IMG/VR virus record: IMGVR_UViG_2529293240_000016
Reading direction: 5' to 3' (one strand)
From: a virus
Taxonomy: Duplodnaviria; Heunggongvirae; Uroviricota; Caudoviricetes
Length of the DNA: 15,032 nucleotides
Shown one piece after another: positions 1,922 through 4,443 of the stretch; the stretch's first letter is position 1, and every line of letters begins with the position of its first letter. The notes beneath the pieces are model-generated. The model ran no database searches, had not been told where the DNA came from, and saw only the letters and a program-made list of their open reading frames with translations. The position numbers and the translations under genes are program-made.

Positions 1922-2816
1922 AACTGGCACCGAACGTAAAAAAACAGCCACGCGGAATAAAACACAAAGACACAGAGGTAATTATCTTTGCGGGTAGTGA
2001 TGCCTGGTCGCACGCGAAACAATGGCAGGAGCAGGATGGCCCCGCATCCGGCGATAATGTGCCGCCTGTGTGGCTTGGGCCAAATCAGCTTGCCGAACTT
2101 GATGCACTGAAAATTGTTCCGGATGGAAAAAAACGCGTAAGGCTGTACCAGGCCGGAGAACTGGATTTGGTGGAGACCAAAAAGATTGGTCAGAAGCTGG
2201 CGGCGGCAGATATTCAGGACGCAAATTTTTACCCCGAAGGAATGCACGTCCAGAAGTGTGAAAACTGGCGGCGCTATCTGAATGCTGAGCGTGAAAATAT
2301 TGCCGCAGGGCTTACCATGCCGGAGCAGAAAAATACGCAACTGGCACAAATGGCAGACAGTGAGCGCGCGCAGCTGCTTGCCGAGCGCTTTGATGGCGTT
2401 TGTGTGCATCAGGAAAGTGAAATCGTTCACGTATGGCGCGGCGGGGTATGGTGTCCGGTCAGCACAATGGAACTTAGCCGCGAAATGGTGGCGATCTATT
2501 CAGAGCACAGGGCCACTTTCAGCAAGCGCGTAATCAATAACGCCGTGGAAGCGTTAAAAGTTATTGCCGAACCAATGGGCGAGCCGTCCGGCGATTTGCT
2601 GCCGTTCGCCAATGGTGCGCTTGACCTGAAAACGGGGGAATTTTCCCCGCACACGCCGGAGAACTGGATCACCACGCACAACGGCATTGAGTACACGCCA
2701 CCAGCACCAGGGGAGAACATCCGCGATAACGCGCTAAACTTTCATAAATGGCTTGAGCACGCAGCCGGAAAAGACCAGCGCAAGATGATGCGTATATGTG
2801 CCGCGCTGTACATGAT
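1918..2816 (+). pseudogene. P4-family primase/helicase, N-terminal fragment, interrupted by IS1
   Basis: Reading frame runs straight into the IS1 left end at 2817 and terminates on IS1-derived codons (track ORF 1918..2838); the sequence resembles the D5_N / P4-family primase region (LPFANGALDLKTGEF...). Confidence 0.8.
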
Positions 2817-2831
2817 GGTAATGACTCCAAC

Positions 2832-3335
2832 TTACTGATAGTGTTTTATGTTCAGATAATGCCCGATGACCTTGTCATGCAGCTCCACCGATTTTGAGAA
2901 CGACAGTGACTTCCGTCCCAGCCTTGCCAGATGTTGTCTCAGATTCAGATTATGTCGCTCAATGCGCTGAGTGTAACGCTTGCTGATAACGTGCAGCTTT
3001 CCCTTCAGGCGTGATTCATACAGCGGCCAGCCATCCGTCATCCATACCACGACCTCAAAGGCCGACAGCAGGCTCAGAAGACGCTCCAGTGTGGCCAGAG
3101 TGCGTTCACCGAAGACGTGCGCCACAACCGTCCTCCGTATCCTGTCATACGCGTAAAACAGCCAGCGCTGACGTGATTTAGCACCGACGTAGCCCCAATG
3201 TTCGTCCATTTCAGCGCAGACAATCACATCACTGCCCGGTTGTATGCGCGAGGTTACCGACTGCGGCCTGAGTTTTTTAAGTGACGTAAAACCGTGTTGA
3301 GGCCAACACCCATAATGCGTGCACTGGCGCGACAT
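2832..3335 (-). CDS. insB: IS1 transposase InsB
   Basis: 167-aa translation matches IS1 InsB as recalled ([35 protein letters not shown]...). Confidence 0.93.
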
Positions 3336-3529
3336 CCGACGCCATTCATGGCCATATCAATGATTTTCTGGTGCGTACCGGGCTGAGAGGCGGTGTAAGT
3401 GAACTGTAGTTGCCATGTTTTACGGCAATGAGAGCAGAGATAGCGCTGATGTCCGGCAGTGCTTTTGCCGTTACGCACCACGCCTTCAGTAGCGGAGCAG
3501 GAAGGACATCTGATGGAAATGGAAGCCAC
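3254..3529 (-). CDS. insA: IS1 InsA
   Basis: 91-aa translation matches IS1 InsA as recalled ([43 protein letters not shown]...). Confidence 0.93.
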
Positions 3530-3584
3530 GCAAGCACCTTAAAATCACCATCATACACTAAATCAGTAAGTTGGCAGCATTACC

Positions 3585-4443
3585 GTACATGATTATGGCG
3601 AACCGGTACGACTGGCAGATGTTTATTGAGGCCACCGGAGACGGCGGGAGCGGTAAAAGTACATTCACACACATAGCCAGCCTTCTGGCAGGGAAACAGA
3701 ACACGGTAAGCGCTGAAATGACATCGCTTGATGATGCTGGTGGACGTGCGCAGGTTGTCGGGAGTCGTCTTATCGTCCTGGCTGACCAGCCGAAATATAC
3801 AGGCGAAGGAACGGGCATCAAGAAAATCACGGGCGGTGACCCCGTGGAAATTAACCCGAAATACGAAAAGCGTTTCACGGCTGTAATCAGGGCGGTGGTG
3901 CTGGCGACCAACAATAACCCGATGATATTCACCGAACGGGCCGGAGGTGTGGCACGTCGTCGCGTGATTTTCCGTTTCGACAATATCGTTAGTGAGGCCG
4001 AAAAAGACAGGGAGCTACCGGAAAAGATTGCGGCTGAAATCCCTGTCATTATCCGCCGATTGCTGGCGAACTTTACCGACTCTGAGAAAGCACGGGTTTT
4101 ACTACTGGAACAGCGTGACGGTGATGAAGCTCTGGCAATAAAGCAACAGACGGATCCGGTTATTGAGTTTTGCCAGTTCCTGAATTTTCTGGAGGAAGCA
4201 CGCGGCCTGATGATGGGCGGCGGTGGCGATTCAGTGAAGTACACGACCAGAAACAGCCTTTACCGCGTCTATCTGGCGTTTATGGCGTACGCAGGCAGGA
4301 GCAAACCGCTAAACGTAAATGACTTTGGCAAGGCTATGAAGCCAGCCGCGAAAGTTTACGGACATGAATATATTACGCGGAAAGTTAAGGGAGTAACGCA
4401 GACTAACGCAATAACAACAGACGAGTGCGACGCGTTTTTATAA
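3585..4443 (+). pseudogene. P4-family primase/helicase, C-terminal fragment (SF3 helicase-like)
   Basis: Same frame as the N-terminal fragment once IS1 and one duplication copy are removed (...ALYMIMANRYDW...); Walker A motif GDGGSGKST. Track ORF 3571..4443 starts on a TTG inside the IS1 end. Confidence 0.8.

Follow-up and report, generated by a model that had tools for sequence, protein, structure and literature searches.

The window, by which we mean the whole stretch of DNA analysed (15,032 bp), is 100% identical to contig AFOW01000015.1 of assembly GCA_000217895.2, the proteins of which are named Shigella flexneri SFJ17B, a strain on which a literature search found nothing relevant. Judged by its gene content, the window covers the larger part of a capsid-forming PICI (cf-PICI), which measures about 15.6 kb and has roxA on one side and the phoQ 3' end on the other. 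In the window the replication gene rep is followed by an iteron region, by several small ORFs and then by a packaging module, in which major capsid, prohead protease, portal, head closure protein, connector, HNH endonuclease, TerS and TerL are recognized by Pfam, with terL present in a frameshifted form; phoQ lies after the packaging genes on the opposite strand. The integrase gene int and alpA are situated directly to the left of the window on the same contig, while a search for tail or lysis genes between roxA and phoQ found none. The packaging genes are borne out by Pfam hits listed for locus L003 and have one-to-one matches at 95-100% in an annotated E. coli island.

The boundaries of the island are set by the empty site of K-12, where roxA and phoQ are separated by a spacer of 75 nt, which gives a size of about 15.6 kb including IS1; the right end, at approximately position 13561, adjoins the phoQ stop codon. 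The 21-bp direct repeat CGGTGTAGTTAATGGTGTAGT was considered as the att core and rejected, as the comparison with K-12 sets the boundaries further out, at the GGACATATTT repeat. The CGGTGTAGTTAATGGTGTAGT 21-mers are found around 100-125 bp inside each island end and may be candidate integrase arm sites. The whole window was scanned for Rfam families and tRNAs without a hit, so that the island uses no tRNA site there.

By gene order, the island resembles the cf-PICI prototype EcCIEDL933 with its int, alpA, rep-ori, capsid, protease, portal, adaptor (head closure), connector, HNH, TerS and TerL (10.1101/2022.09.08.507074; PMC10085698). The two are also alike in having no tail or lysis genes and in a size of about 15 kb, the cf-PICI range being 10-18 kb, whereas the SFJ17B copy is degenerate, with int frameshifted, rep split by IS1 and terL frameshifted. 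S. flexneri has already been counted among the cf-PICI hosts (10.1101/2022.09.08.507074; PMC10085698; 10.1101/2025.02.11.637232). The features of the interrupted rep region are collected in Table 1.

Table 1. Coordinates of the interrupted rep gene, the inserted IS1 element and the adjacent putative origin (positions are those of the window)
Feature	Position	Strand	Details
rep, 5' part	1918-2816	+	codons 1-299 and 2 bases of codon 300; includes D5_N
Target-site duplication (9 bp), left copy	2808-2816	.	GTACATGAT; adjoins the IS end exactly
IS1, complete, Shigella-type iso-IS1	2817-3584	-	768 bp
Terminal inverted repeat IRR, insB-distal end	2817-2839	.	GGTAATGACTCCAACTTACTGAT; 20/23 positions equal to the other end
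insB', 167-aa ORF, normally made as InsAB' fusion	3335-2832	-	PF03400 (DDE_Tnp_IS1), full profile, 246 bits
insA, 91 aa	3529-3254	-	Pfam PF03811 and PF12759 (Zn_ribbon_InsA, HTH_Tnp_IS1)
AAAAAAC (A6C) -1 frameshift site, insA to insB'	3278-3272	-	IS position 307
Terminal inverted repeat IRL, insA-proximal end	3562-3584	.	reverse complement GGTAATGCTGCCAACTTACTGAT
Target-site duplication (9 bp), right copy	3585-3593	.	GTACATGAT; adjoins the IS end exactly
rep, 3' part	3594-4443	+	Walker A, SF3-type helicase core, P4-alpha-like origin-binding domain; GenBank EGM62343.1
Probable replication origin	4458-4674	.	8 exact GGTAGAYA iterons in both orientations, directly 3' of rep

An earlier, sequence-only reading of this DNA had recognized an IS1 insertion in rep flanked by a 9-bp target duplication, and the positions of the element and of both repeats hold exactly. 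The 9-mer occurs twice in the 15,032-bp window, on each occasion at an end of IS1, and the identity of two given 9-mers has a chance probability of 4^-9 (about 4e-6). Excision of positions 2817-3593, by which 1918-2816 is joined to 3594-4443, gives a 1749-nt ORF of 582 aa containing ...ALYMIMANRYDWQMFIEATGDGGSGKST..., the continuous frame of about that length which had been anticipated. Over its whole length the restored protein has 100% identity with P0001 ('DNA primase [Shigella flexneri]'), a naturally occurring S. flexneri protein from a locus free of IS1, and seven further near-identical alleles that were compared are 1-4 residues off, so the restored frame does have full-length homologues. 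Many 582-aa proteins are present in a large protein collection, the sequences listed by the homologue search all having at least 99% identity, under the source names DNA primase or P4-family primase; in E. coli complete genomes uninterrupted 1749-nt genes of up to 99.0% identity are annotated 'DNA primase family protein'.

The unoccupied target exists in nature. At the locus that encodes P0001 (L009, S. flexneri GCA_013978305.1), the site reads GCTGTACATGATTATGG, in wider context ...GCCGCGCTGTACATGATTATGGCG..., with the 9-mer as a single copy, and the two flanks of the window (1-2816 and from 3585) both align to this locus with an overlap of exactly those 9 bases. The single 9-mer together with the 9-base overlap is direct proof of transposition with target duplication. 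Thus, the insertion is a genuine transposition as had been claimed, and the IS1-free alleles sought in related strains are present in this and other loci, as found by sequence comparison.

As the source assembly is a draft and IS1 is highly repeated in Shigella, the arrangement might alternatively be an artefact in which a collapsed IS1 repeat was set into a draft contig. The closed genome CP100042.1 (L021) carries all 15,032 bases save three single-base homopolymer indels. In addition, short-read contigs from independent samples break at precisely the two junctions: those of the left junction (L004-L008) stop 28 bases into the IS1 left end, and those of the right junction (L023, L024 and L028), which were retrieved via exact look-up of the downstream 101-aa protein, begin within the IS1 right end. 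Because other assemblies break at IS1, exact look-up with the C-terminal fragment (290 aa in the SFJ17B annotation) returned SFJ17B alone. With the same junctions in the closed genome and in independent assemblies, the duplication is not lost in other sequencing, and its perfect 9 bp agree with IS1 chemistry. An assembly artefact is excluded and for practical purposes refuted.

The IS1 copy is apparently intact with respect to ORFs and ends, in line with the initial description of a complete element with both inverted repeats and intact insA/insB. The match of insB' to NCBIfam NF033558 scores 146 bits against a cut-off of 100, and an in silico -1 slip at the A6C site yields an open InsAB' reading frame of 232 aa. 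A promoter scan picked up a promoter-like site on the minus strand, at 3577-3550, that is directed into insA. Many IS1 copies on S. flexneri plasmids have 99.9% identity to the IS1 of the window. Compared to K-12 IS1A, length and gene offsets are equal at 90.9% identity, and the 70 substitutions designate the element a Shigella-type variant; its InsA differs from K-12 InsA1 in 5 residues. In structure the element is no different from the IS1 family, as size, 23-bp imperfect ends, insA/insB', A6C, the 232-aa InsAB' and the 9-bp duplication all match.

What has been interrupted is, by its domain composition, a PICI-type Rep, an initiator-helicase with an origin-binding domain. In the restored protein Pfam finds D5_N at residues 151-280, DUF5906 at 314-415 and Pox_D5 at 485-574; the Walker A loop extends from G315 to T323 and a P4-alpha-like origin-binding domain occupies residues 485-577, while the whole protein just passes the TIGR01613 profile (109.8 bits versus a cut-off of 108.7). 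In BLASTP, residues 141-577 align with residues 326-762 of P4 alpha (40% identity over 438 residues, E 2e-109), a likeness that spans the Walker A helicase core and the origin-binding domain. Likewise, a PDB sequence search aligned the helicase part (query 186-430) with residues 398-639 of the 7OLA chain (E 8e-16) and the C-terminus (486-577) with 1KA8, deposited as 'putative P4-specific DNA primase' (E 7e-7). The latter we take to be the origin-binding domain of P4 alpha. With 7OLA and 7OM0, a 797-aa chain deposited as 'DNA primase' and presumably the SaPI5 primase-helicase, the similarity is restricted to the helicase core.

The sequence-only reading had named the disrupted gene an island primase/helicase, of which the helicase and the expected alignment with P4 alpha stand, while neither a primase domain nor an EGYATA motif was detected. 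P4 alpha (777 aa) possesses an N-terminal primase domain of about 325 residues which the restored Rep of 582 aa does not have: BLASTP found no similarity to alpha residues 1-325 in the restored protein, and the EGYATA motif is absent from it. Residues 1-160 yielded nothing but noise, both in Pfam at E values of up to 10 and in a sequence search of the PDB. Based on these searches and the absent motif, an assignment of the N-terminal 160 residues as primase was rejected, and 'primase' is, as far as domain and motif searches go, an inherited annotation label that they do not substantiate. A predicted beta-alpha-beta pattern in residues 20-105 gives a hint and no more of what this part may be. 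For the truncated product of 306 aa, AlphaFold2 prediction from the single sequence gave a model with a mean pLDDT of 46, too low for a fold search.

The probable replication origin lies immediately downstream. All 8 matches to GGTAGAYA in the window fall within the origin region, where 0.35 are expected in the window and none of 200 shuffles reached 8, and an A+T-rich stretch is located among the iterons (4466-4505, 77.5% A+T). A layout of rep followed by iterons and an A+T-rich stretch has been described for PICIs, and in EcCICFT073 rep and ori constitute a working replicon in which deletion of rep abolishes replication (PMC6092414). By organisation, the locus is likened to this rep-ori of Gram-negative PICIs, with the same layout, interrupted here (EcCICFT073, PMC6092414). 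The iteron sequence GGTAGAYA differs from the P4 type 1 repeat, TGTTCACC. E. coli has the same rep gene, at 97-99% nucleotide identity, in PICI-type islands of the classical kind situated at tRNA-Pro, in line with a published account according to which PICIs and cf-PICIs swap their left arms (PMC10085698). As a separate observation, in another genome Mu-like gin/com/mom genes adjoin the origin region of the island.

With respect to the consequences, IS1 enters at codon 300 of rep and leaves D5_N (151-280) on one side and, beginning 15 codons further on, the Walker A loop with the helicase core and origin-binding domain on the other. An intact Shigella-type IS1 transposed into codon 300 under generation of the usual 9-bp target duplication, and the cell is left with an N-terminal stub and possibly an unlinked C-terminal piece. 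The upstream ORF as it stands runs to position 2838 and encodes 306 aa, composed of 299 native and 7 IS1-derived residues (GenBank EGM62340.1). The C-terminal fragment still has Met codons 299 and 301 in frame, so that its expression is conceivable in principle; a crude promoter scan found no promoter directed from IS1 into the 3' half of rep. The initiator-helicase for the downstream iteron origin would be lost and with it autonomous replication of the island after induction by a helper phage. The sequence-only reading had concluded that autonomous replication should be abolished; that the helicase and origin-binding domains are cut off is plain from the locus, and loss of Rep function, hence of island replication, is a well-grounded inference from sequence and from the analogous PICI replicons.

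IS1 is classically and strongly polar, so that any transcript that extends into the packaging genes may be reduced as well. In the prototype EcCIEDL933, mutation of any packaging gene abolishes transfer, not replication (10.1101/2022.09.08.507074). Transfer of the island is expected to be impossible in SFJ17B.

The history of the insertion can be read from related loci. Between the window and its IS1-free sister L009 there are 0 differences across 1-2816 and 3594-4512, which includes the whole rep gene, while the remaining shared sequence has 8 SNPs and 4 small indels. The truncated rep product is found in about 10 contigs, compared with 271 to at least 1000 contigs each for several intact alleles. 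As rep has acquired no substitutions with respect to the sister locus and the interrupted allele is rare, the comparison shows the insertion to be recent and confined to a small clade, in accordance with the fairly recent event that had been suggested from the preserved duplication.

The integrase was damaged earlier. A +GA frameshift at codon 336 of int, which removes the HDIRRT box and all that follows, including the C-terminal catalytic region, is common to IS1-bearing (L003, L004, L021) and IS1-free loci (L009, L010), and the int lesion consequently precedes IS1. A 19-bp deletion after window position 12150, on the other hand, frameshifts terL in the window, L021 and L023, whereas L024 combines the IS1 right junction with an intact 553-aa TerL, which dates the terL deletion after IS1, in part of the clade. 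The order of lesions that emerges from comparison of these loci is int frameshift, rep::IS1 and terL 19-bp deletion. IS1 accordingly entered an island with an already frameshifted integrase in a small clade, part of which later acquired the terL deletion.

This order bears on the strongest form of the earlier interpretation, that IS1 struck a functional mobile island and was the lesion that ended its autonomous life. In its favour, no lesion within the window is as conspicuous as rep::IS1, open frames are preserved for capsid, protease, portal, head closure, connector, HNH and TerS, and alpA shows 100% conservation. The same int +GA frameshift is nevertheless present in every member of the sub-lineage, with IS1 or without, which indicates that excision was probably lost before the arrival of IS1. 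As the integrase was already defective, IS1 did not kill an otherwise working element, and a functional island struck down by IS1 is improbable; a helper or a related island could supply integrase in trans.

Elsewhere in the species the island has been damaged in different ways. Other S. flexneri lineages have kept int and rep and carry other lesions in the island, such as a nonsense codon at capsid residue 276 or a deletion of about 90 bp by which the TerS start is lost, and CP026810.1 has an independent IS1 in the island (duplication CGAAACAAT) together with a different terL frameshift. The variety of these lesions indicates that the island is decaying independently across S. flexneri.

Against this background, disruption of rep might have been selected, as an excision-defective island would over-replicate in place beside phoPQ upon alpA induction by a helper phage and would be disarmed by the loss of rep. 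The precedence of the int lesion over rep::IS1 and the intact origin iterons would fit such a scenario, and so would the finding that genic IS insertions are overall selected against, with the survivors tolerated or favoured (PMC7373316). However, there is no sign of rep as a preferred target, other lineages with rep intact have lost capsid, the TerS start or terL or gained IS1 elsewhere, IS1-free strains with the frameshifted integrase persist (L009-L011), and the IS1 allele is rare. Selection for the knock-out is consequently less probable still than the loss of a functional island, and we regard it as very unlikely; if true, stranded satellites would be silenced by a predictable series of compensatory lesions.

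Cumulatively, recent IS1 pseudogenisation of rep in an already stranded cf-PICI, likely as neutral IS-driven decay, is with high confidence the best explanation of the locus. Neutrality is suggested by the earlier integrase lesion and by the decay elsewhere in the species, and rep::IS1 most likely was not a killing event but contributed, as a neutral change, to the decay through IS elements of a satellite that was already stranded.

Among the expanding IS of Shigella, IS1 is the most abundant and accounts for 42-59% of insertion sites. The event is an ordinary, commonplace instance of IS-driven decay in Shigella with nothing mechanistically new, and matters little beyond correct annotation and lineage markers. 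As to annotation, GenBank EGM62340.1 and EGM62343.1, filed as separate proteins, are the halves of one rep pseudogene, and in satellite surveys the cf-PICI of this small clade should score as non-functional, each of int, rep and terL being disrupted. The int +GA frameshift, rep::IS1 and the terL 19-bp deletion provide handy ordered markers for the S. flexneri sub-lineage. The locus illustrates clearly how separate S. flexneri lineages disable the same inherited satellite by different mutations, which fits the genome reduction through IS elements published for Shigella.

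The island integrase carries a GA insertion at codon 336, a frameshift by which the catalytic C-terminus is lost, and the same lesion is found in sister loci with and without the IS1 that splits the rep gene. Because the frameshift is common to IS1-bearing and IS1-free sisters, it is older than the IS1 insertion. The integrase of SFJ17B alone shows an additional 1-bp deletion within a run of A residues, possibly the result of a sequencing error. At window positions 1913, 10376 and 13305, SFJ17B and the closed genome CP100042.1 differ by a single base in homopolymer length, and probably one or the other assembly was misread there.

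The terL gene is likewise a pseudogene, with a 19-bp deletion (CAATTACAGGGGGCTGGTT) after position 12150 shifting the frame at codon 445, and re-insertion of the 19 bp regains a 553-aa TerL. This deletion is common to the window, CP100042.1 and ERR048300 and is missing in SRR18753465, and since the latter bears the IS1, the terL deletion is younger than the IS1 insertion.

In the same island, S. flexneri CP026810.1 possesses a second IS1 at a site equivalent to approximately window position 1400, in the orientation opposite to that of the window's IS1 and with its own 9-bp duplication CGAAACAAT, which is an independent insertion in another lineage. In this genome the capsid gene is also interrupted by a nonsense codon, the TerS start is deleted, and terL has a frameshift differing from that of the window. 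In GCA_051797565.1, Mu-like gin/com/mom-type genes adjoin the island just past the origin region, with the junction at the window equivalent of 4703, and this direct abutment suggests that a Mu-type prophage end is located inside the island.

Features of the island and its surroundings
Feature	Position	Remark
Integrase with frameshift	L003 (IS1-bearing locus) 6234-7464	lies outside the window, ~0.6-1.85 kb to the left of its position 1; shared by L004, L021 (IS1-bearing), L009, L010 (IS1-free)
248-aa ORF	window 1-747	plus strand
Small ORFs	window 195-389, 453-626	minus strand
GGTAGAYA iterons	window 4458-4674	eight, exact, both orientations; directly 3' of rep
A+T stretch	window 4466-4505	77.5%; with the iterons
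terL	window 10819-12461	pseudogene
Region without family match	window 12757-13450	~700 bp, last recognised island gene to right end
21-bp direct repeat CGGTGTAGTTAATGGTGTAGT	window 13451-13471; locus L016 4534-4554	
Pentamer repeat tract	window 13500-13565	GACTT/TGACT; just downstream of phoQ
Island ends	L016 ~4409; window ~13561	
IS1 of CP026810.1	L014 8715-9482	
Mu-like genes of GCA_051797565.1	L022 1-1545	

The 248-aa ORF has no match in Pfam, NCBIfam or PHROG and may be spurious; the small minus-strand ORFs match annotated E. coli island genes with 46% and 100% identity. The region without family match, where only short minus-strand ORFs of 64 and 49 aa were called, could contain an accessory gene or be non-coding.

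Comparison with the K-12 empty site set the island junctions, which have GGACATATTT in common and of which the right one touches the phoQ stop codon. The copies of CGGTGTAGTTAATGGTGTAGT, located ~100-125 bp inward of each end, may be an integrase arm site. Relative to the sister genome L009, the pentamer tract shows a difference of one 5-bp unit.

The iteron cluster with its A+T stretch is probably the island origin, and this predicted origin is intact.
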